Positions 14,058-62,267 of a stretch of DNA of 64,000 nucleotides are shown here, in pieces. This stretch comes from Candidatus Dormiibacterota bacterium. GTDB taxonomy: Bacteria; Chloroflexota; Dormibacteria; Aeolococcales; Aeolococcaceae. Every line of letters starts with the position of its first letter. Positions within the stretch are counted from its first letter, which is position 1. The stretch lies in contig CAWGML010000002.1 of NCBI GenBank assembly GCA_963823765.1, forward strand, positions 231,626 to 295,625. The letters run 5' to 3'. Under the pieces are notes generated by a model. It made no database searches, had not been told where the DNA came from, and was given only the letters and a program-made list of their open reading frames with translations. Made by a program: the position numbers and the translations under genes.

Positions 14058-15339
14058 GACGCGCGACCGTCCATGCGCAGCCTGATCGCCTGCTCGTGCG
14101 CGGCCAGGCCCTCGGCGGTCGCCAGGGTGACCGCCACCGGCGCCAGCGCGTCGAACTCCTCGCCGGTGAGGTCGACGACCGAGGGCCAGCGCACGAAGTC
14201 CATCACCGACAGCGGGCCGCGGTAGCGCGCCGCCCCCTGGGTGGGCAGGGTGTGGTTGGGTCCGGCCACGTAGTCGCCGATGGACACCGGCGACAGCGCG
14301 CCGCAGAACACCGCGCCGGCGCCGCGGACCCGGTCGCGCAGCGCCTCCGCTGCAGGGCCCTGCAGCGACAGGTGCTCGGGGGCGAAGGCGCGCACCAACG
14401 GCAACGCGGCGTCGAGGTGGTCGACGGTGACCACGGCGCCGTGGCGCCCCGCCGACTCGGCGATGATGCCCGCGCGCGCCGCCGCCGGCGCGAGGCGTTC
14501 GAAGCTGGCCGTCACCGCGGCGGCGAGAGGTGGAATCGGTGACACACACGGCCCAGGCGAGCGGATCGTGCTCGAGCTGCGAGACGAGGTCGGCGGCGAC
14601 GTGGTCGGGGTCGGCGCCCGCCGACGCCAGCACCATGATCTCGCTCGGCCCGGCGAGCTGGTCGATGCCGACAGCCCCGAAGACGTCGCGCTTGGCGAGG
14701 GTCACGAAGAGGTTGCCCGGGCCCACCACCTTGTCGACCGCCGCGATCGTCTCCGTGCCGTGGGCGAGAGCTGCGATCGCCTGCGCTCCCCCGACGGCAT
14801 GGACCTCGGCGACGCCGAGGAGGTGGGCGGCCGCGCCCACCAGAGGGTGCACGGTGCCCGCGGGCGTGGGCGGGCTGGTGATGACGATCGACTCGACCCC
14901 TGCCGCCTGGGCGGGGATGACGCTCATCAGCACCGTGCTCGGGTACGCGGCGCGCCCACCGGGCACGTAGCACCCCACGCGACGGAGAGGCTCGGGCCGC
15001 AGGCACAGGCGCGGCCCGCCCCGCGGGCGGACGTCCACCTGCAGGTCGTGGAAGGCGCGGATCCGATCGGCGGCGGCGGTGAGCGCCTCGCGCAGCTGAG
15101 TCTCCAGCTCGGCCCAGCAGCGCGCCATCCAGGCCGGGTCGGCCCGGGCGACGTCGACCCGAGCCCCGTCGAGCCGTTCGGTCCACTCGACGACCGCGGC
15201 GTCGCCACGGCGGCGCACGTCGGCGACGATCTCGCGCACCGCGTCGACGGCGGCCGTCTCCGGGATGTCGAAACGGCGCGTCGGCGCCGGCTGCCTCCGC
15301 CTGCCACTGCTCGCCGGTGAGCACGCGCAGAGCGATCAC
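14054..15339 (-). pseudogene. hisD: histidinol dehydrogenase; reading frame broken twice as assembled
   Basis: Three collinear pieces in different frames: MIALRVLTGEQWQAEAAGADAP (from GTG 15339, GTGA overlap with the hisG stop), then FDIPETAAVDAVREIVADVRRRGD...LEHDPLAWAVCVTDS, then PLAAAVTASFERL...GPNHTLPT...AHEQAIRLR. Frame hops near 15272 and 14531, each consistent with one extra base. Confidence 0.85.
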
Positions 15340-15972
15340 GACCCGGCCCGCTCGACGGTGCGCCGCAGCGTGGTGGCCAGCTCGGTGATGGCCGCGCCGC
15401 GCGTCTTCATGGAGGCCACGTTGACCACCAGCCGGGCCGTCGAGGTGGCGATGGTGGCCACCTCACACAGGCGGTTGGCCCGCAGCGTGGCACCGGTGGC
15501 GACGAGGTCGACAATGCCGTCGGACAGGCCCGCGGACGGGGCCAGCTCCACCGAGCCGTGCAGCCTGATCAGCTCCGCGCCGCCGCCGCGGCCGGCGAAG
15601 AACCGTCGCGCCGCCTGGGGGTACTTGGTGGCCACCCGCAGCGAGGACGGCCAGCTGCCTCCGGCCAGCACTGAGCCCTCGGGCGCCGCCAGCACGAGGC
15701 GGCAGACTCCGAAGCGCAGGTCGGCGAGTTCGTACAGCTCGACGCTGCGACTCCCAGAGCACGTCCTTGCCGACGATGCCGCAGTCGCATGCCCCCATCT
15801 CGACGTACACGGGCACGTCGGTGGGGCGAACCGTGATGACCTCGTTGCCGCCGACCTCCAGCTGGAGGCGCCGCTCGAACGACCCCGGGTGCAGGCCTGG
15901 CGCGACCCCCGACTCGCGCAGGAGAGCGCACGCGTCCGCCAACAGCGCACCCGTCGGCACAGCGATGCGCAA
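15336..15972 (-). pseudogene. hisG: ATP phosphoribosyltransferase, short (HisZ-dependent) form; frame broken once as assembled
   Basis: LRIAVPTGALLADACALLRESG...ITVRPTDVPVYVEMGACDCGIVGKDVLWES, then after a hop near 15744 VELYELADLRFGVCRLVLAAP...VATKYP...ELAPSAGLSDGIVDLVATGATLRAN. Candidate TTG start at 15972. No stop separates it from hisZ. Confidence 0.8.
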
Positions 15973-16986
15973 GCCGCCGCCGCGGCGCGTCCCGTCGACG
16001 CGGCGGCGCGTGACCGCGTCGTGGCAGCGATCGGCGTGGACCACGAAGCCCGTGGCCGGCTGGTCGAGCCCGAACCGCCCCAGCAGCGAGTCGTAGCGGC
16101 CCCCGGCGCCGAGCGGGAAGCCCAGGTCACCGCTGAACAGCTCGAAGGTGGGCCCGGTGTAGTAGTTCCAGTCGCGCACCGCACCGAGGTCGAGGTGGAC
16201 GCGCTCCTCGAGGCCGCGCTCCGTGAGCAGGTCCCAGAGCCGCGCCAGCTCGTCGAGCGCGCGCAGCGGCTCCGCCGCCGCCAGGCCGGCGCGTGCCTGC
16301 TCGAGCAGCTCGCGGCCCCCGCGCAGGGCCGGGAAGCGCAGCAGCAGGGTGTGCTCGGCAGGCCCCAGCGAGGTCGCCGCCAGCGCGCGTTCGACGGCGA
16401 CGAGGTCGCGCGCCGCCAGCGCCGCGCCGATCTCGTCGCGACTGTCCGCGTCGATGCCGGCCCCTGCGAGCAGCGCGGGGAGGAAGGCGGCGTGGCCGAC
16501 ATCCACCTGGATGTCCGGAACGCCGGCGGCGTCGACCGCGGTGATCGCCAGCGCGATGCACTCGGCGTCGGCGCCGAGGTCGGCGTCGCCGACCAGCTCG
16601 CAGCCCGCCTGCATCGCCTCGCGGCGGCGTCCACCGAGCAGGGTGCGGTTGCGGACGACAGGGCCCGCGTAGCAGAGCCGCATCGGGAAGGGGCCGCGAC
16701 GCAGCTGGGTGGCCACCGTCCGCGCCACGCTGACGGTGCGCTCGCCCACCAGCGCGAGCATGCTGCCGTCGGCGTCCATGAAACGGAACAGCTCCTCGCC
16801 CGCGTCGCCGCCCAGGCCGCGCTCGACCGTGTCCGCGTACTCCACGGTGGGGGTGTCGATGAGGTCGTAGCCGGCGGCCTCGAAGGTGGCGACCAGCGCG
16901 CCGGTCAGCGCACGCCGCGCCGAGGCTGCGCCGGGCAGCCAGTCGCCGAACCCACCGGGACGCGCAGCCGCGCCGGATGCCTTCAT
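15973..16986 (-). CDS. hisZ: ATP phosphoribosyltransferase regulatory subunit (HisRS paralog)
   Basis: ATG 16986. GFGDWLP...FEAAGYDLIDTPTVEY...LFRFMDADGSMLALVGERTVSVAR...PMRLCYAGPVVR...GAGGRYD. The 3' boundary is nominal because the frame runs straight into hisG. Confidence 0.75.
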
Positions 16987-17021
16987 TCGCGACAGTGTAG
17001 GGACGGCCTCGGCGAGCGGCC

Positions 17022-19964: not shown

Positions 19965-20048
19965 CCCGCGCCAGGCTCGGGTAGCCCATCCAGAGGGCCG
20001 GCAACGCGCCGGCCCTTTCGCGCGCCGCGCGTGCGTATGCTCGTCGTC

Positions 20049-21112
20049 ATGACACGCGCGTCGCCGGCTCGGCGCGGGCTTCCTGATCGTTGGCGGCGGC
20101 TGGTGTTCGGGCGTCCACCGGCCGCAGGCGGACCCGTCACTCCGCGTCGCGTCCCGGCAGCCAAGCCCGCCCGGCCCGCGCGACCTCGTCGCCGGCGTCG
20201 GCATCGCGCTGCCGGAGCCGCTGACGATCGCGGCCATGCGGGCCCGCGCGTACCCCGCGAGCAGGCTGACCACCGTGCGATCCGACGGTGACCAGGGCGG
20301 CTACGTCAACACGGTTGTCTCGTTCGTCTCCGACGGCCTCACCGAGTACTCGCTGCTGAGCGTGCCCGACGGCGGGCGGCCCGCCGCGGGATGGCCGGTG
20401 GTCATCGTCAGCCACGGCTACATCGACCCGCGGACGTACGTCACCGACGACGGCTCGTACGCGCAGTTCATCGCCGCCTTCGCGCGCGCCGGCTACATGG
20501 TGCTGAAGCCGGACTTCCGTGGCCACGGCAGGAGCCAGGGGGTGGCCGAGGGCGGGTACCTGTCACCGGTGTACGCGTACGACCTGCTCAACCTCATCAG
20601 CACGGTGAAGGCGGATCCGCGGGTCGACGCGACGCGCATCGGGCTGTTCGGCCACAGCCTCGGCGGGTACGAGGCGCTGCGTGCCATGGTGGTGTCGAGC
20701 GACATCAAGGCGGTCGTGTTCATGTCCGCGGTGGTGGGGTCGCTCGACGACATCTTCTTCCACTGGTCGACGGTGACCCCGACACCGACCGCGCGCCCCG
20801 CCACCCGTGCAGCAGCAGGTGGCGCAATCACTGATCGCCAGGAAGGGCACGCCGCAGACCGACCCCGTCTTCTGGAGCGCGGCGTCGCCGATCAACTACG
20901 TGAGCGACATCCAACGCCGCGGTGCAGATCGACGAGGACGTCAACGACAGCCAGGTGCCGAAGCTGTTCTCAGACCACCTCGACGCCGCCCTGCAGGCGG
21001 CCGGGAAGAGCGTGGGGAGTACGTGCGCTATCCCGGGGACGACCACCAGTTCACCAGGAACCGCGCCGCCGTGCTGGCCAACATGCTCGCCTTCTACCGG
21101 GCGCACCTCTGA
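20049..21112 (+). pseudogene. alpha/beta hydrolase (S9 / dienelactone-hydrolase-like esterase); about four frame breaks
   Basis: Core WPVVIVSHGY...GLFGHSLGGYEA (GxSxG nucleophile elbow), then GTPQTDPVFWSAASPINYVSDIQ, AVQIDEDVNDSQVPKLFSDHLDAALQAAGKSV and EYVRYPGDDHQFTRNRAAVLANMLAFYRAHL* in successive frames. Hops near 20070, 20806, 20916 and 21015. Confidence 0.7.
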
Positions 21113-30321: not shown

Positions 30322-31650
30322 ATGGCACCAAACGCGTCCATACGGGTGGTGCTCGCTGACGACAACCTGATCGTCCGCGAGGGGGTGCGGGCGCTCCTGC
30401 TCACCGCCGGCGACGTCGACGTGGTCGGGGTCGCCGGTGACTACGACGAGCTGGTCGCGGCGGCGGATGCGCTGACCCCGCACGTGGTTGTCACCGACAT
30501 CCGCATGCCGCCCAACTTCACCGACGAGGGGATCCGGGCCGCGCGGCTGATCCGCAAGCAGCACCCGGGAACGGGCGTCGTGATCCTCTCGCAGTACGAC
30601 GAGCCCGAGTACGCCATCTCCCTGCTGAGCGAGGGGGCCGCCGGCTATGCGTACCTGCTCAAGGACCGGGTCGCCGAGGGTGACCAGCTGGCCCGCGCGG
30701 TGCGCGAGGTGAGCGCCGGTGGCTCGATGCTCGACCCGCGCATCGTCAACGCGCTCACCAAGCCGGTGACCGACAGTGGCGGCCTCAGCGACAGCGACGA
30801 GCGGCTCCTGCAGATGGTGGCGGAGGGACGCCCGATCAAGGCGATCGCGGTGGCCACCAACTCCACCCCTGAGGCAGTCTCCGACGCTGTCGAGCAGCTC
30901 TTCCTGACGCTGGCCCAGCAGGCCAGCACCGGCACGCAGAGCGCCCTGCAGCGGCTTCGCCTGCTGCACCGGGCGATCGTCGATCGTGAAGAGCAGGGGG
31001 AGAGCCTGAGCCGGATGCTCCCCGGCGGCATCGCGCAGAAGCTGCGTGAGCAGGGCGTCAAGCCCGGCGAGACCGAGCGGCTGAGGGTCACGGTGCTGAT
31101 GTCGGACATTCGCGCGTACTCGACGATCGCGGAGATGGCCGACCCCAGCGTCCTCGCCGGCCAGCTCCACGAGCACCGCGCCGAGATGAACCACGCGCTG
31201 CTCGGCGAGAACGGCACGGTGATGCAGTTCGTCGGCGACGCGGTGATGGCGGTGTTCGGAGCGCCGTTCCCGCAGCCCGACCAGTGCGAGCGCGCAGTGG
31301 CGGCAGCCGAGGCGATGCACGCGCGCCAGGCCCAGCTCAACGCGCGCTGGGACGTGGCCGGGCTGCCGCCCTTCCACCTCGGCATCGGCGTTTCCACGGG
31401 TGACGTCGCCGCCGCGCTGCTGGGCTCGGACGAGCGCCTCGAGTACTCGGTGGTCGGCGACGCGGTGAACCTCGCGCAGCGACTGCAGCAGTGGGCCGAG
31501 GGCGGCCAGACGGTGCTCAGCGAGCCGACGTTCGCCGCGCTCGCGCAGGCGCCGCATGCGGAACGGCTCGAGCCGGCACTGGTCAAGGGGCGGCAGACGC
31601 CCGTGGGCGCGTACCGCATCGGCGTCGCGGTCGCGAGCGTGCCGGCGTGA
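30322..31650 (+). CDS. response-regulator receiver + degenerate LuxR-type HTH + class III adenylate/guanylate cyclase fusion
   Basis: REC: IRVVLADDN...VVVTDIRMPPNFTDEG. HTH-like: LSDSDERLLQMVAEGRPIKAIAVATNSTPEAVSDAVEQLF. Cyclase: VTVLMSDIRAYS...FVGDAVMAVFGAP...GIGVSTGDV...EYSVVGDAVNLAQRL. Confidence 0.85.
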   Translation: MAPNASIRVVLADDNLIVREGVRALLLTAGDVDVVGVAGDYDELVAAADALTPHVVVTDIRMPPNFTDEGIRAARLIRKQHPGTGVVILSQYDEPEYAISLLSEGAAGYAYLLKDRVAEGDQLARAVREVSAGGSMLDPRIVNALTKPVTDSGGLSDSDERLLQMVAEGRPIKAIAVATNSTPEAVSDAVEQLFLTLAQQASTGTQSALQRLRLLHRAIVDREEQGESLSRMLPGGIAQKLREQGVKPGETERLRVTVLMSDIRAYSTIAEMADPSVLAGQLHEHRAEMNHALLGENGTVMQFVGDAVMAVFGAPFPQPDQCERAVAAAEAMHARQAQLNARWDVAGLPPFHLGIGVSTGDVAAALLGSDERLEYSVVGDAVNLAQRLQQWAEGGQTVLSEPTFAALAQAPHAERLEPALVKGRQTPVGAYRIGVAVASVPA

Positions 31651-33795
31651 ATGACCAGGCCGCGCGGCGCCGCACCACCGCGATCGCCGTTGCACTCGCC
31701 GTCTTCGCTCTCGCCGGAGCGGCGACGACCGTCGTGCTTGCGGTGCTCAACCGAGCGCACCTGCCCAACCTTGACGCGGCAGACCCATCCTCGATCGCGG
31801 TGCCCATGGGAGCGATCATCGGCGTGCTGGTGGCGTGGCGCCGTCCCCACAACCCGGTGGGATGGCTCATCCTGTTCATCGCGGTTGCCTCGAGCCTGCA
31901 GGGTGTCGAGGACCAGTACACCCGCTTCGCGCTGCTCACGCACCCGGGTCTGCCCGGCGCCGTCTGGTCCGAGTGGCTCGGCAGCTTCGTGGCGGTGCCG
32001 ATCTTCCCCGCAGGCGCCGTGGCCTGGCTCCTCGTGCTGCTGCCCGATGGTCACCTGCCCTCGCCACGCTGGCGACTTCTCCTGGTCGCGGGCGCGGTGG
32101 ACACCGCTGTCCTGGTGGTCGTCACGGCATTCGCCCCCGGCCCGCTGAACGTCGGCACCAATGGCGCCAACTACCCCAACCTGAACAACCCGCTGGGCCT
32201 GGGTGCTCTCCAAGCGTTCTCTGCCAACGGGAGCGCGCTGTTGGGGGGCGTGATCTGGTTCAGCGGGCTCGCCCTCCTGCTCATCGCCGGCGTTGCCCCG
32301 CTGCGGCGGTTGCGACGCGCCAGCGGTGATGAACGCCAGCAGCTTGAAGTGGGTCGCCTACGCGGTGCTGGTCACTGTGGCAACGGTGGTCGTCTTCGTC
32401 TTCCTGGCCGGTTCCGTACTGCCCAGTTGGACGTTCGACATCCCCATCGTCCTCGGTTTCGGGGTGGCATTCCCGGTGGCGATTGGGCTGGCGATATTCA
32501 AGTACCGCCTGTACGACATCGACGTGGTCATCAGCCGCACGCTCGTGTACGGCTCGCTGGCGGCGTTCATCACCGCCGTCTACGTCGGCATCGCCGTCGG
32601 CTTGGGCGCGCTCGTGGGGGGCGGGGGCAAGCCCAACCTGGCGCTGTCGATCGTCGCCACCGCGATCGTGGCGGTGGGATTCCAACCGGTACGTGAGCGT
32701 GTGCAACGAGTCGCCAACCGGTTCGTGTACGGCAAGCGGGCGACGCCGTACGAGGTGCTGTCGCAGTTCTCCGAGCGCGTCGCCGAGTCATACGCCGCCG
32801 AGGAGGTGATGCCACGCATGGCGCGGGTGCTCGCCGACGGGACAGGTGCGCAGCGCGCCGACGTGTGGCTGCGCAGTGCCGGGACCTGGCACCAGGCTGC
32901 GGTGTGGCCCACCGACGCCGCGCTCGCTGAGCCGATCGCCGCGGTCGATGGCACGCTGCCGACGCTCGGCGGAGTCAGCCGGCTCGTCGAGGTGCGCCAC
33001 CAGGGCCAGCTGCTCGGTGCGCTGGGGGTAACCAAGCGCAGCGGAGAGACGCTGACACCCGTCGAGGAGAACCTGCTCAACGACCTCGCCGGCCAGGCCG
33101 GGCTGGTGCTGAAGAACGTCGGTCTCACCAGCGACCTCCAGGCCCGGCTCGCCGACCTGCGTGCGTCGCGCCAGCGCCTGGTCACCGCGCAGGACCAGGA
33201 ACGCCGCCGGCTGGAACGCAACCTCCACGACGGCGCCCAGCAACACCTGGTGGCGCTCAAGGTGAAGCTGGGCCTCGCCGAGATGCTCGCGTCGCGCGAC
33301 CCGGAGAAGGCCACGGCGACGATCGCGCAGCTCAAGGACGACGCCGACGAGGCACTCGAGACCCTGCGCGACCTCGCGCGCGGGATCTACCCGCCGCTAC
33401 TCGCCGAGAAAGGCCTCGGGGTTGCGCTCGAGTCGCAGGCGCGCAAGGCCACCGTCCCGGTGACCGTGGACGCCGAGGGAATCGGCCGCTACTCCCAGGA
33501 CGTCGAGGCGGCCGTGTACTTCTCGGTGCTCGAGGCGCTCCAGAACGTGCAGAAGTACGCGCAGGCGTCGCAAGCGACGGTGCGTCTGCGTGAGGAGGGC
33601 GGCTCACTCAGGTTTGACGTGGCCGATGACGGCATGGGTTTCGACATCGCCACCACCTCCAGGGGATCGGGCCTCACCAACATGGCAGACCGCGTCGACG
33701 CGCTGGATGGTCAGGTGAAGCTCACGTCGGAACCCGGCCGGGGAACCCAGCTGCAAGGGTCGCTGCCGGTGATGGCCGTCGGTCTGCAGGCGTGA
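31647..33795 (+). pseudogene. multi-TM sensor histidine kinase (GAF-like + HisKA_3 + HATPase_c), paralog 1; one frame break
   Basis: GTG 31647 (GTGA overlap with the cyclase stop). Membrane domain runs to ...RRASGDERQQL, then a +1 hop near 32346 to KWVAYAVLV.... The paralog reads GDERQQLKWIAYAV uninterrupted. H-box RRLERNLHDGAQQHL. Confidence 0.85.
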
Positions 33796-48865: not shown

Positions 48866-49267
48866 CGCGCTGACGGCGCTGACCGGGGCCCGCTCGTGGT
48901 GGTCGGCCTCGTAGCGGTCGATGAAGTCGATGATCATGTCGCGCATCCCGCACAGCTCGCGCGCCCAACCGTCGAGCACCGCGCTGCCGGACGGGGTGAT
49001 CTCGTAGCGCCGCCGCCGCGGTCCCTCCGCGGAGCGCTCCCACGTTGACCGGACCAGTCCGTCGTCCTCCATTGTGTTGAGGGCGCGGTAGACGGAGCCG
49101 GGGTCCCAATGGCCGAGGGAGAGCGGGGCGAGCTTCTCGCGCAGCTCATAGCCGTAGGTCGGCTCCTCGCCGAGGAGCAGCAGCAGGCAGGGACGCAGGT
49201 AGTTCCTCGGTTGGACAGGCAGCCGCGAGCCGTTGGCGTGGTTGCTCGGCGGGCCGGCGTGGCGCAT
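48854..49267 (-). CDS. PadR family transcriptional regulator
   Basis: LRPCLLLLLGEEPTYGYELREKLA...PGSVYRALNTMEDDGLVRSTWE...RRRYEITPSG. GGAGGGAGG before ATG 49267. Confidence 0.85.
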   Translation of the reverse strand: MRHAGPPSNHANGSRLPVQPRNYLRPCLLLLLGEEPTYGYELREKLAPLSLGHWDPGSVYRALNTMEDDGLVRSTWERSAEGPRRRRYEITPSGSAVLDGWARELCGMRDMIIDFIDRYEADHHERAPVSAVSASAR

Positions 49268-49448
49268 CTGCCTCCCTCCGAGCTTGCTGCTGGTGAGAGC
49301 CTCGCAAGGCTGCATCCGCATCGTCGGTACGGTTGCGTACAACCGCCGCCGCCGTCGTTGCAGCTTCGACGATGCGCGCCGCGACCCCCTCAACGCAAGC
49401 GCCGATCGAGAGTCGCTCGGCGGCATTCGTAGGTGGTGGATGCACTTA

Positions 49449-49477
49449 TTGACGGCACCGGGAGTGGCTCCTACGGT
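49449..49477 (+). promoter_or_regulatory. candidate sigma-70-type promoter for the hydrogenase operon
   Basis: TTGACG (49449-49454), 17-nt spacer, TACGGT (49472-49477, TAnnnT type), about 75 nt upstream of the hhyS ATG. Sequence inspection only. Confidence 0.3.
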
Positions 49478-49554
49478 GACGCCTTCGCGCGTGTGTTCCG
49501 CGACGTCGCAGATGTCGCAAGGTGTCCAATCGCAGCCAGGGAGGTGTGCACCAC

Positions 49555-50655
49555 ATGGTGACCGAGGCAGCGCCGTACGGACGGAAAACACAGAAGGAGC
49601 CTCCCGTCAAGGACGTGCACATCGTGTGGATCACCGCCGGCCTCAGCTGCGACGGCGACTCCGTGTCGATCACCGCCGCCACCCAGCCGAGCATCGAGGA
49701 CGTGCTGCTCGGCTCCATCCCCGGCCTGCCGACGGTCCACCTGTACAACCCCGTCCTCGCCTACGACAACGGGGACGATTTCCTCAAGCCGTGGTTCGCG
49801 GCCGCGCGCGGCGAGCTCGACCCGTTCGTCCTCGTCATCGAGGGATCGATCCCCAACGAGAAGCTCAACGCCAACAACGGCGGCTACTGGGCGGCCGTCG
49901 GCACCGACCCGGCCACGGGTCAGCCGATCACCACCAACGAGTGGATCGACCGGCTCGCCCCCAAGGCCCTTGCGGTCGTGGCGGCCGGCACGTGTGCGAC
50001 GTACGGCGGCATCCATGCGATGCAGGGCAACCCGACGGGCGCGATGGGCCTCGCCGACTACCTCGGCTGGGACTTCAAGACCGGTGCCGGGTTGCCGGTG
50101 ATCAACGTGCCCGGTTGCCCGGTGCAGCCCGACAACTTCATGGAGGTGGTGCTCTACCTTCTCTACCAGGTGGCCGGCTTGGCGCCGGTGATCCCGCTCG
50201 ACGAGGAGCTGCGCCCCACCTGGCTGTTCGGGGCCACTGTGCACGACGGCTGCGACCGCGGCTCGCACTACGAACAGGGCGAGTTCGCCAAGGTGTACGG
50301 CTCGCCGCTGTGCCTGGTCAAGCTCGGCTGCTGGGGCCCGGTCGTCAACTGCAACGTGCCCAAGCGCGGCTGGATGGCCGGCATCGGCGGCTGTCCCAAT
50401 GTCGGGGGCATCTGCATCGGCTGCACCATGCCGGGCTTCCCGGACAAGTTCATGCCGTTCATGGACGAGCCACCGGGCGCGAAGCTCTCCACCAAGATCG
50501 TCGGCGGCTACGGGAAGGCGATCCGCGGGCTGCGCACGATGACCAACAACACAGTCAACAAGGAGCCGAAGTGGCGCCACAACAGGCCTGAGCTGACCAC
50601 CGGGTACAAGCCGCAGACCGGCGGCGTCGCCAGGTCATTCAACCGTCCTTCGTAG
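49555..50655 (+). CDS. hhyS: [NiFe]-hydrogenase small subunit, group 1h (high-affinity type), without a Tat signal
   Basis: HIVWITAGLSCDGDS, AAGTCATYGG, NVPGCPVQPDN, GCDRG...CLVKLGCWGPVVNCNVPKRGW...GGCPNVGGICIGC. GGGAGG 11 nt before ATG 49555. No RRxFxK motif. Confidence 0.9.
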   Translation: MVTEAAPYGRKTQKEPPVKDVHIVWITAGLSCDGDSVSITAATQPSIEDVLLGSIPGLPTVHLYNPVLAYDNGDDFLKPWFAAARGELDPFVLVIEGSIPNEKLNANNGGYWAAVGTDPATGQPITTNEWIDRLAPKALAVVAAGTCATYGGIHAMQGNPTGAMGLADYLGWDFKTGAGLPVINVPGCPVQPDNFMEVVLYLLYQVAGLAPVIPLDEELRPTWLFGATVHDGCDRGSHYEQGEFAKVYGSPLCLVKLGCWGPVVNCNVPKRGWMAGIGGCPNVGGICIGCTMPGFPDKFMPFMDEPPGAKLSTKIVGGYGKAIRGLRTMTNNTVNKEPKWRHNRPELTTGYKPQTGGVARSFNRPS

Positions 50656-50673
50656 CGGTAAGGAGAAGCAGCG

Positions 50674-52461
50674 ATGGCGACACTCATGCAGAAGGGCGGC
50701 ACTCCCAAGTCCGGGACGCTCACCGAGGTCTCCTGGGACCCGATCACGCGCATCGTCGGCAGCCTCGGCATCTTCACCAAGATCGACTTCGCCAACCGTG
50801 TCGTCGCCGACGCGCGCAGCACCTCCTCGATCTTCCGCGGCTACAGCATCTTCATGAAGGGCAAGGACCCGCGCGACGCGCACTTCATCACCAGCCGCAT
50901 CTGCGGCATCTGCGGCGACAACCACGCCACCTGCGCGACCTACGCGCAGAACATGGCCTTCGGCATCAAGCCGCCGGCGATCGCCGAGTGGATCGTCAAC
51001 CTCGGCGAGGCGGCCGAGTACATGTTCGACCACAACATCTTCCAGGACAACCTGCTGATGGTCGACTTCTGCGAGCAGATGGTCAAGGAGACCAACCCCA
51101 GCGTCCTGGCCAAGGCCGAGAACACGCCGGCCCCGCACGCGGGCGACCACGGCTACCGGACCATCGCCGACATCATGCGCGCGCTCAACCCGTTCACCGG
51201 CGAGTTCTACCGCGAGACCCTGCACGTGTCGCCGCTACACGCGCGAGATGTTCTGCCTGATGGAGGGGCGGCACGTCCATCCCTCCACGCTGTACCCGGG
51301 CGGCGTCGGCACCGTTCCCACCGTGCAGCTCTTCACCGACTACCTCGTGCGCCTCATGAAGTACGTGGAGTTCATGAAGAAGGTGGTGCCGCTGCACGAC
51401 GACATCTTCGACTTCTTCTACGAGGCGCTGCCCGGCTACGAGGAGGTGGGCCGGCGCCGCATGGACACCGTCTGCTGGGGATCGTTCAACGACCCGGCGG
51501 TGTGCGACTACACCTACAAGCGCATGGGCGAGTGGGGCAAGGCGATGTTCGTCACCCCGGGGTGCGTCGTCGACGGCAAGCTGGTGACCACCGACCTCGT
51601 CGACATCAACCTCAACATCCGCATCCTTCTCGGCCATTCCTACTACGACGACTGGGCCAACTCCGAGACCTTCGTCACCACGCGACCCGCTCGGCAACCC
51701 CGTCGACCAGCGCCATCCGTGGAACCAGACCACCCTGCCGCGCCCGCAGAAGCGCGACTTCGACGACAAGTACAGCTGGGTGATGTGCCCGCGCTGGCTG
51801 CACAACGGCGAGCACCTCGCCATGGACACCGGCGGCGGCGCGTTCGCGCGCCTGCTGGCCACCTCTCTCGCCGGGCTGGTGGACATCGGCTACGTCAAGG
51901 CCACCGGCCACAGCACCAAGATCTACCTGCCCAAGACGCAGACCAAGCCCGAGGTGGAGTTCGAGTGGCACGTGCCCAAGTGGAGCAACGCCATCGAGCG
52001 CGACCGCGCCCGCACCTACTTCCAGGCGTACTCCGCCGGCGCGGCGCTGCACTTCATCGAGAAGGCGTTCGAGGAGCTGCACGCCGGGCGCACCGACACC
52101 TTCACGCCGTTCGAGGTGCCGGACGAGGCGATCGGCTGCGGCTTCCACGAGGCGGTGCGCGGCGTGCTCTCGCACCACGTGGTCATCCGCGAGGGCAAGA
52201 TCGCCAACTACCACCCGTACCCGCCCACCCCGTGGAACGCCACGCCGCGCGACAGCTACGGCACGCCCGGGCCCGTACGAGGACAGCGTGCAGAACACGC
52301 CGATCTTCGAGGAGAACGGCCCGGACAACTTCAAGGGCATCGACATCATGCGCGCCGTGCGCAGCTTCGATCCCTGCCTGCCGTGCGGGGTGCACATGTA
52401 CCTCGGCGATGGCAAGGTGCTGGAGCGCAAGCACTCGCCCACCTTCGGGGGCACGCACTGA
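50674..52461 (+). pseudogene. hhyL: [NiFe]-hydrogenase large subunit, group 1h; three frame breaks as assembled
   Basis: AAGGAG before ATG 50674. L1 motif ITSRICGICGDNHATC. Pieces in three frames: ...FYRETLHVS, hop near 51232, RYTREMFCLMEGRHVHPSTLYPGGVG...SYYDDWANSETFVTT, hop near 51683, DPLGNPVDQRHPWNQTTLPRPQKRDF...SYGTPGP, hop near 52275, YEDSVQNTPIFEENGPDNFKGIDIMRAVRSFDPCLPCGVHMY (L2 motif), stop at 52459-52461. Confidence 0.9.
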
Positions 52462-52517
52462 CAGCCGCAGCCGTCAGCCCGCCGTCCCGCGGCTCCGACG
52501 GAGAGTTCGCGGGGCGG

Positions 52518-53066
52518 ATGGCGCGCATCGACGAGCTGGTCGGGGAGCTGGGGGCGCTCCCCGACCCGGCGATGCGAGCGCGCGCCGAGGAGCTGATCGG
52601 CGCCGTCCTCGAGCTGCACGGCGACGCGCTGCGCCGCATGCTCGACGCGGTCGCCGACCAGGCGGACGGCGGCGCCGCGCCTGTTCGCCGAGTTCGCCGC
52701 CGACGAGCTGGTGCGCAGCGTGCTGCTCGTCCACGACCTGCATCCCGTCTCGCTCGCCGACCGCGTCGAGCAGGCGCTGGAGTCGGTGCGACCGATCATG
52801 CACGGGCACAAGGGCGACGTCGAGCTGCTCGGCATCGAGGACGACGTGGTCCGCCTGCGCCTGACGGGCAGCTGCGAGGGGTGCCCGTCGTCGGAGCTCA
52901 CCATGAAGGCGGCGGTCGAGAAGGCGCTGTACGAGGCCGCGCCCGAGCTCGCCGGGATCGAGGTGGAGGGGATGAGCCCGCCGCCCCGGGTCCGCCCACG
53001 ATCGAGTGCCTCGTCCCGCTGCAGATGGCGTCACCGCGCGCCGGCGCGGCCGCCGGGCCGCGGTGA
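52518..53066 (+). pseudogene. NifU-like Fe-S protein of the hydrogenase cluster (HhyE-like); at least one frame break
   Basis: MARIDELVGELGALPDPAMRARAEELIGAVLELHGDALRRMLD...DGGAA, hop near 52680, LFAEFAADELVRSVLLVHDLHP...VELLGIEDDVVRLRLTGSCEGCPSSELTMKAAVEKALYEAAPEL (NifU C-terminal CxxC). The C-terminal PTIECLVPLQM...* lies in a third frame, so further hops near 52987-52997 are possible. Confidence 0.7.
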
Positions 53067-53072
53067 ACGGGG

Positions 53073-53719
53073 ATGGCGCTCGAGACTGAGCCGTCGCTGG
53101 CGTCCCTGCGCCGGTTCGTGCGTGAACGGGAGCCGGCGCGAGCGGTGCGAGCTGTGCGCCGCGGGCATCGCGCCGCACCCGCAGCACGAGCACCTTCTCG
53201 ACCCGAGCGGAGCGCCAGCTGCTGTGCAGCTGCACGCCGTGCGCGCTGCTCTTCCCGGTGGAGGCGCAGAAGCGCTTCCGTCGCGTGCCCCGCCGGCTCT
53301 GGTCGCTCACCGACTTCACCATGACCGACGCGATGTGGGATCGCTGGCGATCCCGGTCAACATGGCGTTCCTGCTCACCAGCGCGCCGCGGGCGAGCTGC
53401 ACGCGTACTACCCGAGCCCGGCGGGCGCGACGGAGTCGCTGCTGACGCTCGAGGGCTGGTCGGAGCTGCTCGAGGCCAACCCCGCGCTGACGTCGCTGGT
53501 GCCCGACGTCGAGGCGCTGCTCATCAACCGCGTCGGCGAGCGCCGCGACTACTTCATCGCGCCGATCGACCGCTGCTACGAGCTGGTCGGGCTGCTGCGC
53601 GTGCACTGGCGCGGGCTGTCGGGCGGCACCGAGGTGTGGGAGCGCGTCGGCAGCTTCTTCGACGAGCTGCGCAGCGCGCGCGCGCGCCAAGCCGGCACAG
53701 GGAGCTGGTCCGTGCCTGA
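53073..53719 (+). pseudogene. conserved hydrogenase-cluster protein (DUF5947-like, from memory); four frame breaks
   Basis: MALETEPSLASLRRFVREREPA, hop near 53139, ERCELCAAGIAPHPQHEHLLDPS, hop near 53208, ERQLLCSCTPCALLFPVEAQKRFRRVPRRLWSLTDFTMTDAMWD, hop near 53343, LAIPVNMAFLLTSAPR, hop near 53393, ELHAYYPSPAGATESLLTLEGW...CYELVGLLRVHWRGLSGG...FFDEL. 3' end uncertain: the only nearby stop (53717-53719) is in another frame. Confidence 0.65.
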
Positions 53720-54366
53720 CCTCGACTTCGCCGTCGACTCGGCCAGCCGCCGTCGACGGCTCGCTGACGCCGCTGCTCGAGTTCGAGCTGCGCATCGAGG
53801 AGGTCGACGGCCGCGACATCGACACCATCGCGCTGAGCTGCCAGATCATGATCGAGGCGGTGCGGCGGCCCTACGCGGCCGCGCGAGCAGGAGGCGCTGC
53901 TCGACCTCTTCGGCACGCCCGCAACGCTGGGGCACCTCGCTGAAGACGATGCTCTGGACGCACGCCGCCATGGTGGTGCCGGGCTTCGAGGGGGCGCACC
54001 ACTGTGCGGCTCCCGGTGCCCACCAGCTTCGACCTCAGCCTGGCGCGCCACCAAGTACTTCTTCGCGCTCGAGGACGGCGAGGTGCCGCTCGACCTTCCA
54101 GTTCAGCGGCACCGTCTTCTACCGCGACGCCGACGGCGACGCTGATGACCGAGCGCATCCCCTGGACCAAGGAGGCGCGCTTCCGCCTGCCGGTCGCGGT
54201 CTGGAGCGAGCTCATCGAGCGCCACTACCCCGACGGCGCCTGGCTGTGCCTGCGCCGCGACGTCTTCGACCGCCTCTACCGGTACAAGGCGCGGCTGGCG
54301 GTGCCGACGTGGGAGACCGTCGTCGACGAGCTGCTCGAGAATGCCGGCAGCGAGGCGCTCCGGTGA
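53712..54366 (+). pseudogene. conserved hydrogenase-cluster protein (DUF6084-like, from memory); seven consecutive +1 frame breaks
   Basis: VPDLDFAVDSAS | AVDGSLTPLLEFELRIEEVDGRDIDTIALSCQIMIEAVRRPYAAA | EQEALLDLFGTP | QRWGTSLKTMLWTHAAMVVPGFEGA | TTVRLPVPTSFDLSLAR | TKYFFALEDGEVPL | TFQFSGTVFYRDADG | TLMTERIPWTKEARFRLPVAVWSELIERHYPDGAWLCLRRDVFDRLYRYKARLAVPTWETVVDELL. Hops near 53748, 53886, 53921, 53997, 54049, 54092 and 54138. Confidence 0.65.
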
Positions 54367-55432
54367 ACCGCGAGCAGGTCGACCGCATCGTCGCCGCGAC
54401 CCTGTACGAGGGCTACATCCTCTACCCGTACCGGCCCAGCTCGGTGAAGAACCAGGTGCGCTGGACCTTCGGCGGCGTGTACCCGCGCGAGTACAGCGAG
54501 GCCGTCGGCGGCGCCGAGCCGTGGTCGGCGACGACCGAGTGCCTGCTGCGTGGCGGCGACGACGCCGAGGTGGAGGTGACGGTGCGCTTCCTCCACGTGG
54601 TGACGCGCACCGCGGCGCGCGTCGACATGCCGGCGCGCGGCACTCCGGCCGACGGAACCGAGAGCCTGCACCCGTGTCGAGGCGTTCGAGATCGACGGGC
54701 GCATCACCGCACCTGGGAGGAGGCCGCCGAGCGCCGGCTCGAGCGCCGGCGTGCGCACGCTGCGCCTCCCTGCTGCGCGAGCCGCGGCGGTCGACGCTGA
54801 CCGTCGGGCCGGGGAGGAGGTGGAGTGGCTGCGCGGGCAGCGATGGGCTGGTCGCCGGGGCGCTGGTGCGCACGCACCGGCCGCTGGCCGTCGCGGTCGA
54901 CGTCTCCGCGCAGCGCGTGAGCCCGGGCATCGCCCGCGTGCGCGTGTCGAGTCACCAACGTCACCCCGGTGACGGCTGACGAGGTGGCCGGACCGCGACG
55001 CGGCGCTGCGTCACGCGCTGCTGTCGACGCACGTGGTGCTCGGGGCCGCAGGACGGCGCGTGGCTGTCGCTCGCCGACCCGCCCGGCGACGCGATCGAGC
55101 ATGCCGCCGCCTGCGTCAACACCGGGCTGTGGCCGATCCTGGTCGGCGCAGCCGGCTCCGCTGACACGGTGCTTGCCTCGCCGATCATCCTCGAGGACCA
55201 CCCGCAGGTCGCCCCGGAGTTCGCCGGCGAGCTGTTCGACTCGACCGAGATCGACGAGATCCTCTCGCTGCGCATCCTCACCCTGACGGACGACGAGAAG
55301 GCGGAGATGCGCGCTGCCGACGAGAGGGCGCGCGCCATCCTCGAGCGCACCGAGTCGCTCAGCCAGGACGACTTCATGCGCATGCATGGGACGCTGCGGT
55401 CGGTCAGCCCGCGCATCGGTGAGACGCGATGA
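54363..55432 (+). pseudogene. conserved hypothetical protein of the hydrogenase cluster (~355 aa); about nine frame breaks
   Basis: GTG 54363 (GTGA overlap). VNREQVDRIVAATLYEGYILYPYRPSSVKNQVRWTFGGVYPREYSE.... Later in-frame islands: VEAFEIDGR, TWEEAAERRLE, SLLREPRRSTLTVGPG, GEEVEWLRG, SDGLVAGALVRTHRPLAVAVDVSAQRVSPGIARVRV, VTNVTPVTADEVAG, RDAALRHALLSTHVVLGAA, DGAWLSLADPPGDAIEHAAACVNTGLWPILVG...SPIILEDHPQVAPEFAGELFDSTEIDEILSLRILTLTDDEKAEMRAADERAR...*. Middle-section frames were chosen by GC3 and residue composition. Confidence 0.55.
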
Positions 55433-55763
55433 CCGAGGTACAATCCCTGGGCGACGCTGGGCGACGACCCGTTCGCCGAGAGACCGCGGCGGCAGTCGGT
55501 GCGCTGGCGCGGCGGCGAGCTGCGCGTCGGTGACCAGGTGCGGCTCGCACCGAAGGGCAGCGCCGACGCCCTCGACATCGTGCTGCGCGGCCGCGTCGCC
55601 ACCATCGAGTTCGATCGAGCAGGACTACGAGGACGTCGTCTACCTGGCCGTCACCGTCGATGACGACCCCGGCGCCGACCTCGGCATGATGCGCCAGCCC
55701 GGGCATCGCTTCTTCTTCACTCTCGATGACGTCGAGGCGGTCGTCGAGGAGCAGGGGACATGA
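55429..55763 (+). pseudogene. small conserved hydrogenase-cluster protein; two frame breaks
   Basis: ATG 55429 (ATGA overlap). MTE, hop near 55438, YNPWATLGDDPFAERPRRQSVRWRGGELRVGDQVRLAPKGSADALDIVLRGRVATIE, hop near 55610, SIEQDYEDVVYLAVTVDDDPGADLGMMRQPGHRFFFTLDDVEAVVEEQGT*. Confidence 0.55.
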
Positions 55764-56317
55764 GCGCGCGCGTCCTCGTCGCCGGCATCGGCAACATCTT
55801 CCTCGGCGACGACGGCTTCGGCGTCGCGGTCGCCCAGGAGCTCCTTCGCCGCGGCTCGCTGGGCTCCGGCGACGTCATGGTCGGCGACTACGGGATCCGG
55901 GGCTACGACCTCGCCTACGAGATCCTCGGCGGGTACCAGACGGTCGTGCTGGTGGACGCCACCCAGCGTGGTGACCGGCCCGGCACCCTCTACGTCATCG
56001 AGGCGGACACCGATGCCGATGTGTCGGACAGCGCCGATGCCGACCACGGCCAGGGCGCCTTCCAGGGCCACCTGATGACCCCGGCGGCCGTGTTCCACCT
56101 GGTCAGGACCATGGGCGGCGCGACCGGCCGCGTGCTGGTGGTCGGCTGCGAGCCGGCGACGTTCGGCCCGGAGAACATCGGCCAGATGGAGCTGAGCCCC
56201 GCGGTGGCCGCCGCCGTGCCCGAGGCGGTGGCCATGGTCGAGCGCATCGTTGCCGAGGCCGAGCGATGGAGGCCTGCGGCACTGCCGCGCGGACAGTGGG
56301 AACGGGGGTGCGGATGA
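55760..56317 (+). CDS. hydrogenase maturation endopeptidase (HyaD/HupD family)
   Basis: VLVAGIGNIFLGDDGFGVAVAQEL...VVLVDAT...GTLYVIE...HLMTPAAVFHL. ATGA overlap with the upstream gene. Confidence 0.8.
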   Translation: MSARVLVAGIGNIFLGDDGFGVAVAQELLRRGSLGSGDVMVGDYGIRGYDLAYEILGGYQTVVLVDATQRGDRPGTLYVIEADTDADVSDSADADHGQGAFQGHLMTPAAVFHLVRTMGGATGRVLVVGCEPATFGPENIGQMELSPAVAAAVPEAVAMVERIVAEAERWRPAALPRGQWERGCG

Positions 56318-56400
56318 CATGGTGGGCATGGTTCTCATCGCCATCGGAGTGCTCGTCCTCGGGCGCCGTCCCCGGTGACCGGGGCCGGACGCGGCGCACG

Positions 56401-56739
56401 GTGCATGAGATGGGGCTGGCCCAGGCAATCGTCGACACCGCGCTGGAGATCGCCGGCGATCGCCCGCTGCGGCGCGTGGTCGTGTCCGCGGGGGAGGGGC
56501 AGGCGGTGAGCGCCGAGTCGCTGGCGTTCAACTTCGGGCTGGTGGCCGCCGGCACCGCCGCGTCGGGGGCCACGCTGGAGGTGCGACCCGCGCCCGGCGC
56601 GCGGCTTCTCATCGATGAGGTCGAGGTGGGCGGCGAGAGCCCGGAGGTGCTCCGCCGCGGCGAGGCCGAGATCGTCGAGGCGCCGCATTCGCATCCCCAT
56701 GAGCACGGTGGCCAATCGGTGCATCCGGCATGGTTGTGA
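56401..56739 (+). CDS. hypA: HypA-like nickel metallochaperone lacking the Zn-finger cysteines, with a His-rich C-terminal tail
   Basis: VHEMGLAQAIVDTALEIAGDRPLRRVVVSAGEGQAVSAESLAFNFGLVAAGTAASGATLEV is collinear with the HypA N-domain (MHE start, GTG 56401). No Cys anywhere. Tail EAPHSHPHEHGGQSVHP. Confidence 0.65.
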   Translation: MHEMGLAQAIVDTALEIAGDRPLRRVVVSAGEGQAVSAESLAFNFGLVAAGTAASGATLEVRPAPGARLLIDEVEVGGESPEVLRRGEAEIVEAPHSHPHEHGGQSVHPAWL

Positions 56740-56773
56740 TCGCAACCGCAGACGACACAGTGGAGGTGACGCG

Positions 56774-56875
56774 ATGAAGAAGCTGCTCCTGCTTGCGGCG
56801 GTGGCGGCGGTGGCCGGGGCGGCCGCGTTCAACGGGAAGGACGTGAGGCGGTACCTGCGCATGCGGAGCATGTAG
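56774..56875 (+). CDS. 33-aa membrane-anchored micro-protein (resembles small DUF6893-type proteins of actinobacterial hydrogenase loci, from memory)
   Basis: GGAGGTG 5 nt before ATG 56774. MKKLLLLAAVAAVAGAAAFNGKDVRRYLRMRSM*. Confidence 0.55.
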   Translation: MKKLLLLAAVAAVAGAAAFNGKDVRRYLRMRSM

Positions 56876-56901
56876 CGGGGCGCGGGGAGCGAGGGACCAC
56901 A

Positions 56902-59271: not shown

Positions 59272-59897
59272 TGGTGTTGAAGAGCGCCGCCCCGGCGACC
59301 GACGTCGACCTGGCGTGGCTGCGCGATGGCGTCGCGGCGCGGTGTGCGGCCGGCGAGGCGTACTTCGCCACCGTGGCGCACGAGCTCGCCCAGTGCGCGG
59401 CGGCGATGGCCGACCGCTTCTTCGCGGGCGCCACCCTGCTCGTCTTCGGCTCAGGCGCAGGCGCCACGGATGCGCAGCACAACTCCGTCGAGTACGTGCA
59501 CCCCGTGCTGCCCGGCTGCCGCGCGCTCCCGGCGCTGTCGCTGACCAACGACGTCAGCACGGTGACCGGGATCCTCGGTGGCGCCGACCCGCTCGACGTC
59601 TACGCGCACCAGCTGCGCGTGCTCGGCCGGCCCGGGGACATCGCGCTCGCCTTCCTCAGCGCACCCGAGGGAGGAGCGCCGCTGCGCGGCCTGCGGGTGG
59701 CGGGGGAGCGGGAGATGCTCACCATCGCGCTGCGCACCGGCGCTCACCGGGTCGACGCGCCTGCCACGCATGTGTTCCATGTCGACGATCCCGACCCGCT
59801 GATCGCCCAGGAGCTGCACCTGGCCACGTACCACATGCTCTGGGAGCTCACCCACATCGTGCTCAACCACCGCGGCATCGCGGAGGCACGGTCGTGA
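59268..59897 (+). CDS. SIS-domain (GmhA/phosphoheptose-isomerase-like) protein, copy 1 (degenerate)
   Basis: LLVFGSGAGATDAQHNSVEYVHP...GDIALAFLS...QELHLATYHMLWEL. ATG 59268 gives an ATGA overlap with the hypF stop. Confidence 0.7.
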   Translation: MMVLKSAAPATDVDLAWLRDGVAARCAAGEAYFATVAHELAQCAAAMADRFFAGATLLVFGSGAGATDAQHNSVEYVHPVLPGCRALPALSLTNDVSTVTGILGGADPLDVYAHQLRVLGRPGDIALAFLSAPEGGAPLRGLRVAGEREMLTIALRTGAHRVDAPATHVFHVDDPDPLIAQELHLATYHMLWELTHIVLNHRGIAEARS

Positions 59898-60792: not shown

Positions 60793-61106
60793 CGATTCCC
60801 GCCAAGCTGGTCGAGTACGTCGACGCCGAGCGCAACTACGGCAGGGTTGAGCTCGGCGGAGTGCGCCGCCAGGTCAACACCTCGCTGCTGGTCGGCGAGG
60901 ACGCCGCCGAGCCCGGCGACTACGTGCTGGTGCACGTGGGCTTCGCGCTCAGCGCGATCAGCGAGGCCGAGGCTGACGAGACGCTGCGCATCCTCGAGGA
61001 GATGGGCCCGGCCTACACCGACGAGTTGCAGCAGATCCGCCAGTCCCAGGCGATGGAGCTCGAGCTCGTCGGACCCGACTACCGCAGGCAGGTCACCGAG
61101 ATATGA
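60783..61106 (+). CDS. hypC: hydrogenase assembly chaperone HypC
   Basis: MCLAIPAKLVEY...GDYVLVHVGFALSAISEAEADETLRILEEM. Confidence 0.85.
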   Translation: MCLAIPAKLVEYVDAERNYGRVELGGVRRQVNTSLLVGEDAAEPGDYVLVHVGFALSAISEAEADETLRILEEMGPAYTDELQQIRQSQAMELELVGPDYRRQVTEI

Positions 61107-62267
61107 AGTTCGCCGACGAGTTCCGCGACGCCGAGCTGGCGCGCTCGCTGGGAGCGCGGATCGCCGCCGAGGCGGGGGAGCGGCACTGGAAGATCATGGA
61201 GGTGTGCGGCGGTCACACCCACACCATCTTCAAGTACGGCATCGAGGACCTGCTGCCCGCCAACGTCGAGCTGGTGCACGGCCCGGGGTGTCCGGTGTGC
61301 GTCATCCCGATGGGCCGCTTGGACGACGGCATCGCGCTGGCGCGCGACAACGACATCATCTTCACGTGCTTCGGCGACCTGATGCGCGTGCCGGGCAGCG
61401 ACGGCAGCCTGCTCGACGCCAAGGCCGCCGGCGCCGACGTGCGCATGGTGTACTCGCCGCTCGAACTCGTTGAAGATCGCCCGCGAGAACCCCGACAAGC
61501 AGGTGGTGTTCTATGCGATCGGCTTCGAGACCACCGCGCCGTCGACGGCGCTGACGCTGTTGCGCGCCAAGGCGGAGGGCATCGGCAACTTCTTCGTGTT
61601 CTGCAACCACGTCACCATCATCCCGCCGATGAAGGCGATCCTCGATTCGCCCGACCTGCGGCTGGACGGCTTCCTGGGCCCCGGCCACGTGTCGACAGTG
61701 GTGGGGGTGCGTCCCTACGAGTTCGTGACCAGGACGTACCGCAAGCCGGTCGTGGTGGTGGGCTTCGAGCCGCTCGACATCCTCCAGGGCGTGCACATGG
61801 TCATCCGCCAGGTGCTCGAGGGCCGCTGTGAGGTGGAGAACCAGTACACGCGCGTGGTCCACGACGACGGCAACCCCAAGGCGCTCGAGGTGCTCGCCAG
61901 GGTGTTCAGGCTCCGCCCGCACTTCGAGTGGCGTGGCCTGGGGTTCATCAGCCAGAGCGCGCTGGAGCTCAACGACGACTTCGCCGACTTCGACGCCGAG
62001 CGCGTCTTCACCGTGCCGGGCATCCGCGTGGCCGATCCCAAGTCCTGTCAGTGCGGCGAGGTGCTCAAGGGCGTGCTCAAGCCGTGGGAGTGCAAGGTGT
62101 TCGGCACGGCGTGCACGCCAGAGACGCCGATCGGGACGTGCATGGTGTCGTCGGAGGGGGCGTGCGCCGCCTACTACAACTTCGGCCGGTACTCCCGCGC
62201 CCGTGACCGCGAGCGCGTGCTCGCCGACGGCCCCGAGCTCACCCCGATCGCGGTGCGGGCGGGATGA
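61103..62267 (+). pseudogene. hypD: hydrogenase formation protein HypD; one frame break
   Basis: MKFADEFRD...IMEVCGGHTH...HGPGCPVCV...VRMVYSPLEL, +1 hop near 61469, LKIARENPDKQVVFYAIGFETTAP...GPGHVS...CQCGEVLKG...FGTACTPETPIGTCMVSSEGACAAYY. Confidence 0.9.

Follow-up and report, generated by a model that had tools for sequence, protein, structure and literature searches.

Gene content and frame breaks of the hydrogenase locus

The window (the whole 64,000-nt stretch of DNA that was analyzed) carries a [NiFe]-hydrogenase locus in which hhyS, hhyL, a NifU-like gene, a DUF5947 gene, a DUF6084 gene, two conserved genes encoding 354 and 110 aa, and hycI are followed by hypA, hypF, SIS, hypC, SIS, hypC, hypD and hypE, with Pfam matches for hhyS, NifU, DUF5947, DUF6084, HycI, HypA, HypD and HypE. 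This 16-gene order is the same as that of the group 1h loci in the relatives L001 and L081–L083. The small-subunit gene of the group 1h-type hydrogenase, hhyS (49555..50655, + strand), is intact (Pfam Oxidored_q6 and NiFe_hyd_SSU_C) and aligns without a frameshift to the hhyS of L081 (95% amino acid identity). The translation of the large-subunit gene, hhyL (50674..52461, + strand), reads both the N-terminal RICGICGDNH and the C-terminal SFDPCLPCGVH nickel-binding motifs, which belong to group 1h in the HydDB classification, and the hhyL orthologues in L081–L083 are called as Pfam NiFeSe_Hases. As in the group 1h (Hhy) loci of Dormibacterota and other soil bacteria, hhyS and hhyL occur here with group-typical cysteine motifs, and no difference from such a locus is left after removal of the indels described below. 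Dormibacterota have been reported to carry hydrogenases of this kind (PMC9561532).

An earlier note on this DNA had proposed at least 26 single-nucleotide frame breaks between positions 51232 and 55610. We found 29 within 51,232–55,610, and the positions given in the note proved very accurate: a GC3 frame plot and a frame HMM both showed the coding frame of the (+) strand hopping at the sites listed there. The breaks are spread over six neighboring hydrogenase genes (hhyL, 3; NifU-like, 2; DUF5947, 6; DUF6084, 7; 354-aa gene, 9; 110-aa gene, 2), and every event is 1 nt in size, with 24 of the +1 type (83%, matching the earlier estimate that about five of six hops behave as an extra base) and five of the −1 type. 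Breaks were called by tblastn and frameshift-aware protein-to-DNA alignment against seven Dormibacterota relatives and by DNA alignment against L001 and L082; antisense "shadow ORF" matches in the first frameshift scan were high-GC noise and were filtered out. The density reached ~6.6 breaks per kb over 4.4 kb versus ~0.15 per kb elsewhere in the window, a ~40-fold local hot spot. As many as 28 of the 29 shifts were seen in the window alone, with 55610 being the single site common to another assembly (L001).

Specifically, hhyL carries three +1 breaks (51232, 51680 and 52266), all of them called by seven of seven references, and its corrected product (594 aa) shows 99% amino acid identity to the HhyL of L001. 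The NifU-like gene (52518..53066, + strand; Pfam NifU) is broken at 52681 (+1) and ~52985 (−1); the site previously placed at ~52680 was thus borne out, while only one of the two further sites suggested near 52987–52997 was found. Its corrected length of 182 aa equals that in L081 and L083, and it carries a complete NifU domain. Six breaks interrupt the DUF5947 gene (53073..53719, + strand; 214 aa corrected), comprising the four already noted (+1 at 53139 and 53209, −1 at 53341 and 53388) and two +1 breaks that the note had missed (53679 and ~53700); the corrected protein spans positions 1–175 of the 177-position Pfam DUF5947 model. The run of seven consecutive +1 hops that had been described for 53748–54138 corresponds to the seven breaks of the DUF6084 gene (53712..54366, + strand; 215 aa corrected), which are consecutive, all +1 (53746, 53880, 53917, ~53993, 54046, 54092 and 54138) and each called by six to seven references. 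After correction, its product spans positions 2–211 of the 213-position Pfam DUF6084 model.

The conserved 354-aa gene (54363..55432, + strand), which has no Pfam family, holds nine breaks, which were located by aligning it, with frameshifts allowed, to L001 and three further relatives, seven of them +1 (54675, 54744, 54763, 54835, 54947, 54990 and 55054) and two −1 (54705 and 54808). Among its 14 best database homologues, 13 are 353–354 aa long and one is 355 aa, with identities of up to 84%. Two +1 breaks (55438 and 55610) fall in the conserved 110-aa gene (55429..55763, + strand). The gene for the hycI/hupD-type maturation protease (55760..56317, + strand; Pfam HycI) is intact and free of frameshifts relative to L081; it is the first clean gene past the hot spot, and hypA, hypF and hypE, also near the broken genes, are clean as well. 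The hypD gene (61103..62267, + strand) has one +1 break at ~61466, outside the 51,232–55,610 range, and its corrected protein spans positions 2–350 of the 351-position Pfam HypD model. The description of the flanking genes as intact therefore holds for hhyS, hypF and hypE but not for hypD. A 375-aa ORF at 59979–61106 overlaps real genes and was dismissed as a spurious shadow ORF.

Frame breaks elsewhere in the window

The rest of the window (~60 kb) contains at least five solid single-base indels and ~9 in all, mostly inserted bases. Similar lesions, again mostly +1, interrupt hisG, hisD and a sensor kinase gene in addition to hypD. In hisG (15341..15990, − strand), a +1-type break at ~15745 places positions 1–27 and 32–157 of the Pfam HisG model in different frames. 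Likewise, positions 9–257 and 260–411 of the Pfam Histidinol_dh model fall in different frames of hisD (14062..15340, − strand), which has a +1-type break at ~14530 and, as read from the translation, a probable second break near 15300. The sensor kinase gene (31641..33793, + strand) has a +1 at 32343, and its alignment with an intact paralogue in the window (33.8–36.0 kb) reads ...SGDERQQ/LKW... over the break. An alpha/beta hydrolase gene (20053..21112, + strand) has probable breaks at ~20805 (+1), 20911 (+1) and 21015 (−1), based on the frame HMM and a three-frame reading, and its N-terminal piece matches only the first half of hydrolase models; this is the weakest of the cases outside the cluster. 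The opposition of a broken cluster to intact flanks, as drawn in the note, was accordingly too sharp, given the breaks in hisG, hisD, the sensor kinase gene and probably the hydrolase gene.

Frame correction, selection and indel context

One of the checks proposed along with the original observation was an alignment to relatives combined with one-base edits, and it restored full-length ORFs of orthologue size. Edits at all 29 sites gave ORFs of 594, 182, 214, 215, 354 and 110 aa, each with a terminal stop only, and the genes called in the same order in L081–L084 (four syntenic relatives with intact orthologues, including short-read-style assemblies) encode 593–594, 182–197, 199–214, 215, 354 and 110 aa. 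The GC3 of the corrected genes is 0.89–0.98, in agreement with the high GC3 and lack of in-frame stops claimed for them previously. Relative to L001, dN/dS ranged from 0.04 to 0.32 in the broken genes and from 0.07 to 0.31 in their intact neighbors. At sites conserved in the four relatives, window-specific replacements amounted to 15 of 1,337 (1.1%) in the broken genes, compared with 2.0–3.2% by the same measure in the relatives with intact genes. The corrected genes thus revealed no sign of relaxed selection, with neither a raised dN/dS nor an excess of lineage-specific replacements. A mixed decay spectrum was also absent from the six genes, in which we found zero in-frame stops, zero multi-base deletions and no deletion bias. 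In bacteria, substitutions naturally outnumber indels several-fold, and the indels are deletion-biased and of varied length; from this general pattern, 29 real indels should have been accompanied by several in-frame stops as well as by some hundreds of substitutions.

We found no homopolymer enrichment of the indels (11 of 25 were homopolymer compatible versus 50–57% expected for random insertions), and no 4-mer was significantly enriched around 30 indel sites after multiple testing (TCGA, 7 observed versus 5 expected). The Nanopore homopolymer or methylation/sequence-motif signature that was sought in the indel contexts is therefore absent; this speaks against one particular platform signature and leaves the error explanation itself untouched. 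Within the window, the hot-spot region has neither a repeat nor a paralogue that could confuse assembly. In the search for a second, independently assembled genome of this species, exact protein matching of hhyS (with two start codons), hypF, hypE and the 375-aa shadow ORF returned none, metagenome contigs scanned at the DNA level with exact and with wobble-degenerate sequences yielded 0 matches, and no sequence from the same species turned up in the searched collections, with the best match to the corrected 354-aa protein being 84% identical.

Origin of the frame breaks

Taken up as the favored of two readings in the note, the proposal that the breaks are insertion-biased consensus errors is supported by the restoration of the ORFs, the selection tests, the 24:5 excess of insertions and the breaks elsewhere in the window, and we consider it very probable that the frame breaks arose as errors of the assembly consensus and not by mutation in the organism. 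The most likely source would be a noisy-read assembly, presumably long-read or hybrid. Over the 4.4-kb stretch, where local read support was presumably low, reads may have been too few or too discordant for consensus calling or polishing to clear the indels; random substitution errors would have been outvoted and the indels left, at sites for which the true base is a presumed one.

Residual indels are known to fragment genes in long-read assemblies, especially below ~40× coverage (PMC9262707; proovframe preprint). Those of long-read and hybrid assemblies are likewise single-base, scattered in coding sequence and fixable by protein-guided one-base edits, and they are worst at low coverage. The relatives from a Nanopore-only MAG catalogue offer a miniature likeness, as they show sporadic similar breaks in the hydrogenase locus (two in L001 and two in L006); MAGs of this type were assembled from Nanopore reads only, with one Medaka polishing (PMC12313526). 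Unlike typical Nanopore consensus errors, however, the breaks in the window are extremely dense and local, insertions are far more frequent than deletions, and homopolymers are not favored, which brings the window closer to the profile of raw PacBio continuous long reads (~8% insertions versus 3% deletions; proovframe preprint). A point against the error reading is that so steep a local rise (40-fold), flanked by clean genes, calls for some cause specific to this stretch.

A special form of the error might be a consensus of mixed strains, in which reads of closely related, co-occurring populations fall on one contig and both alleles of a SNP are kept as adjacent bases (+1) or dropped (−1). Many of the insertions could represent a wobble base present twice, as two different synonymous alleles (ACG|C, GCG|C, CTC|G), AGCC in the window stands against ACC in L001 and GCC in L082, and the breaks are densest where the genes are more variable. 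A strict definition of such a "wobble doublet" applies to 15 of 25 insertions, but simulated random insertions agree with it in 37–47% of cases (p = 0.02–0.14), so the signature, striking by eye, is weakly above chance, and we regard strain mixing as an unlikely though tenable origin. It is a subtype of the artefact explanation and not a biological alternative.

The other reading in the note was that the structural and accessory hydrogenase genes were very recently inactivated and are decaying by indels, with atmospheric H2 oxidation lost. The ~40-fold concentration of breaks in one functional unit, next to clean hhyS, hycI, hypA, hypF and hypE, would fit such a loss, and sequence alone cannot prove any indel to be an error. 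True pseudogene clusters in decaying genomes resemble the window in having many frame disruptions in adjacent genes, but the window differs from them in lacking stops, multi-base deletions, excess substitutions and relaxed dN/dS, and in that housekeeping genes are hit too. Bacterial pseudogenes show a deletion bias, the opposite of the 5:1 excess of 1-nt insertions seen here; replacements in the broken genes, at 1.1%, are below the 2.0–3.2% of the relatives, without a raised dN/dS or a single in-frame stop; and similar lesions occur in hisG, hisD, the sensor kinase gene and hypD. For already-dead genes to have taken 29 independent hits with almost no substitutions would require an unknown, insertion-only mutational process. 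Every sequence-based test that was run favored consensus error over recent pseudogenization, which we judge very improbable.

It is less probable still that some shifts are decoded by programmed ribosomal frameshifting or other recoding, an idea that concerns chiefly the T at 55610 common to L001. Two species-level assemblies, the window and L001, have the additional T of ATCGAG[T]TCGATCGAG, and the frame 3′ of it is kept between them, with ~10 synonymous changes versus 1 non-synonymous change over 41 codons, and is under purifying selection in the two of them. On the other hand, ten further relatives, the four closest among them, lack the shift, a search of the protein database found no other carriers, and L001, itself a MAG built from Nanopore reads only, has a second break close by; moreover, 29 shifts of both signs in unrelated sequences cannot be programmed. 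There is accordingly only a slim chance that the T at 55610 is a real, conserved +1 recoding site, or that some of the indels stem from an insertion-prone mutational process at the locus.

Under consensus error, the frame breaks carry no new biology, and the evidence says that the hydrogenase locus itself would be intact and under purifying selection. The group 1h [NiFe]-hydrogenase genes make up a set that is complete and looks functional, in a high-GC Dormibacterota-like genome, and the organism is, as predicted from these genes, still a likely hydrogen oxidizer. If the record were annotated as deposited, six hydrogenase genes would be labeled pseudogenes or fragments, and a loss of atmospheric H2 oxidation would be attributed to the lineage. 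Before gene content, pangenomes or completeness are analyzed, the contig has to be polished or its frames corrected with the help of protein sequences. Since error density in such assemblies can vary 40-fold over a few kb, clean neighboring genes are no guarantee that a region is correct. Residual indels of this kind are the target of IDEEL-type tests, short-read polishing and proovframe.

Frame breaks and gene content of the hydrogenase locus

With a G+C content of ~70% in the window and a GC3 near 0.95 in its genes, base composition by itself is enough to show the coding frame, and both a GC3 frame plot and a seven-state frame HMM revealed repeated frame hops on the (+) strand between 51.2 and 55.6 kb. 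Syntenic loci were retrieved from relatives, the best matches being Candidatus Dormibacteraeota MAGs; one of these comparison loci, L001, shared 84% DNA identity with the window over 48,895–62,252, and another, L082, was closer (87%). Using proteins from two short-read assemblies (L004 and L005) and a Nanopore MAG (L003) as tblastn queries, we recovered hhyL as four pieces in frames 1, 2, 0 and 1. A frameshift-aware protein-to-DNA aligner, written for this analysis, gave a break list that was consistent across seven references, and DNA alignment against L001 and L082 narrowed the positions to a few bases. The total comes to 29 breaks (24 that act like a single-base gain and 5 like a single-base loss), distributed over hhyL (3), the NifU-like gene (2), the DUF5947 gene (6), the DUF6084 gene (7), a 354-aa gene (9) and a 110-aa gene (2). 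The frame plot, the HMM and the seven-reference alignment thus bear out the earlier note, which had described such breaks from the sequence by eye; nearly all of its positions stood, but it missed two at the 3′ end of the DUF5947 gene (53679 and ~53700), and where it suspected two near 52987–52997 there is one.

The earlier note had also proposed removing one base at each site. Correction by one base at every break yielded ORFs of 594, 182, 214, 215, 354 and 110 aa, each with a single terminal stop and with GC3 values of 0.89–0.98, and so regained orthologue-like lengths: in four closer relatives (L081–L084), reached with the corrected 354-aa protein as query, the called genes measure 593–594, 182–197, 199–214, 215, 354 and 110 aa. 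According to Pfam, the corrected DUF5947 and DUF6084 proteins cover model positions 1–175 of 177 and 2–211 of 213, respectively, the NifU-like protein has a complete NifU domain, and hhyS contains both small-subunit domains; the translated large subunit carries the motifs RICGICGDNH and SFDPCLPCGVH. The order of 16 genes is the same in the relatives (hhyS, hhyL, NifU, DUF5947, DUF6084, 354 aa, 110 aa, HycI, HypA, HypF, SIS, HypC, SIS, HypC, HypD and HypE). As judged from the sequence, this is a predicted group 1h-type hydrogenase cluster, ordinary for a Dormibacterota-like bacterium, and it is probably functional.

No other gene in the locus comes close to hhyL in constraint: its protein is 99% identical to that of L001 at a synonymous divergence of ~0.24 (dN/dS 0.04). 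Between hycI and hypA, L081 has a DUF6893-like mini-gene of 35 aa that can be aligned to the window (56314–56400) over 16 residues only, where position 56331 may mark a −1 break, and that is not among the L082 gene calls. The 354-aa protein is identical in L083 (GCA_000763215.1, JRHI01000010.1; a 2014 GenBank assembly) and L084 (ERZ16270753 k119_285386), an unrelated ENA metagenome contig, and the 110-aa genes of these two are 100% identical in DNA.

Probable consensus error and its alternatives

If the hydrogenase genes had truly and recently become pseudogenes, relaxed constraint would be expected. Instead, dN/dS of the corrected genes vs L001 ranged from 0.04 (hhyL) to 0.32 (354-aa gene), the same range as in the intact neighbours (0.07–0.31). 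At sites where four relatives agree, the window differed at 15 of 1,337 (1.1%) across the six broken genes, below the 2.0–3.2% obtained for each relative by the same scoring. In bacteria, indels arise several-fold less often than base substitutions, and those of pseudogenes are deletion-biased and variable in length. Against this background, 29 real indels in 4.4 kb should have come with substitutions by the hundred and with several nonsense codons. This is not what the stretch shows: no stop codon has newly arisen in the six corrected genes, and all 29 events are of one base, with insertions exceeding deletions 24 to 5. Pseudogenisation is therefore very improbable, and dN/dS, lineage-specific change and the lesion spectrum all support the reading that the earlier note preferred, namely that the breaks are, with high probability, consensus errors. 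No independent assembly of the species was found by protein look-ups or DNA scans of metagenome contigs.

As to how such errors arose, gene-fragmenting residual indels are known for long-read data and are worst below ~40x coverage (PMC9262707). Five of the comparison loci (L001, L002, L003, L006 and L007) are MAGs from a Nanopore-only catalogue, of which L001 and L006 show about two breaks each in the hydrogenase locus. The insertion excess in the window resembles the raw PacBio continuous-long-read profile (~8% insertions vs 3% deletions; proovframe preprint). Neither homopolymers (11/25 vs 50–57% by chance) nor any 4-mer were enriched at the window indels, and no repeat or paralogue of the hot-spot region was found within the window. 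Possibly, the consensus retained both alleles of strain SNPs, and many sites in the DNA alignments fit this by eye, but simulation gave p = 0.02–0.14. We infer that residual consensus indels of a noisy long-read or hybrid assembly would be the most likely origin, and that the hot spot may reflect sparse or discordant reads in this stretch. The breaks appear as an artefact in an otherwise ordinary locus, of practical importance only: annotation should wait until the contig has been polished or its frames have been corrected, and these breaks are no ground for recording a loss of the hydrogenase trait.

The L001 breaks lie at 12338 (DUF6084) and 13909 (110-aa gene), and those of L006 at 3667 and 6758 (hhyS and nifU).

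An extra T shared with a relative

L001 shares one of the extra bases: the T at 55610, within ATCGAG[T]TCGATCGAG, is also found at its orthologous site (window 55604–55616 aligned with L001 13901–13912) but not in ten other relatives, and no further carriers were found in the protein database. In the L001 MAG, MFD04580.bin.2.87, this site falls on contig_12725 at about 1,604,676–1,604,679. Since the frame 3′ of this T is kept between the window and L001, with mostly synonymous changes, it should not be an old inherited lesion; one context-dependent consensus error in two assemblies would account for it, or, improbably, a recoding site. The shifted frame of L001 runs on into hycI, producing a fused ORF.

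Frame breaks elsewhere in the window

The frame HMM flagged further candidate sites over the window, and the breaks are not specific to hydrogenase genes. Pfam HisG positions 1–27 and 32–157 lie in different frames around a break at ~15745, as do Histidinol_dh positions 9–257 and 260–411 in hisD (~14530). A sensor kinase gene (31641–33793) has a +1 break at 32343 by comparison with an intact paralogue 2 kb downstream, in which the ...SGDERQQLKW... motif is uninterrupted. In hypD, correcting a +1 break at 61466 gives a 387-aa protein that covers the whole HypD model, and an alpha/beta hydrolase gene (20.0–21.1 kb) probably has three breaks (~20805, 20911 and 21015). All outside breaks are +1 except one; their background density is ~0.15 lesions per kb vs 6.6 per kb in the hot spot, and the 13.5 kb directly flanking the latter contain one solid break.

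In the histidine operon (hisZ, hisG, hisD and hisB; 13473–17024, minus strand), the hisZ frame continues to hisG without meeting a stop codon, and hisD probably has a further break near 15300. The tandem membrane sensor kinase paralogues (31641–33793 and 33791–36021, the second intact) share 79% DNA identity over 1.4 kb. Frame hops also cluster at 18238–21112, a patch that takes in the alpha/beta hydrolase gene; here an ApbE-family ORF stays stop-free for ~0.5 kb beyond its Pfam match and a small Pro/Ala/Thr-rich, secreted-looking protein shows an apparent frame switch near 19790.
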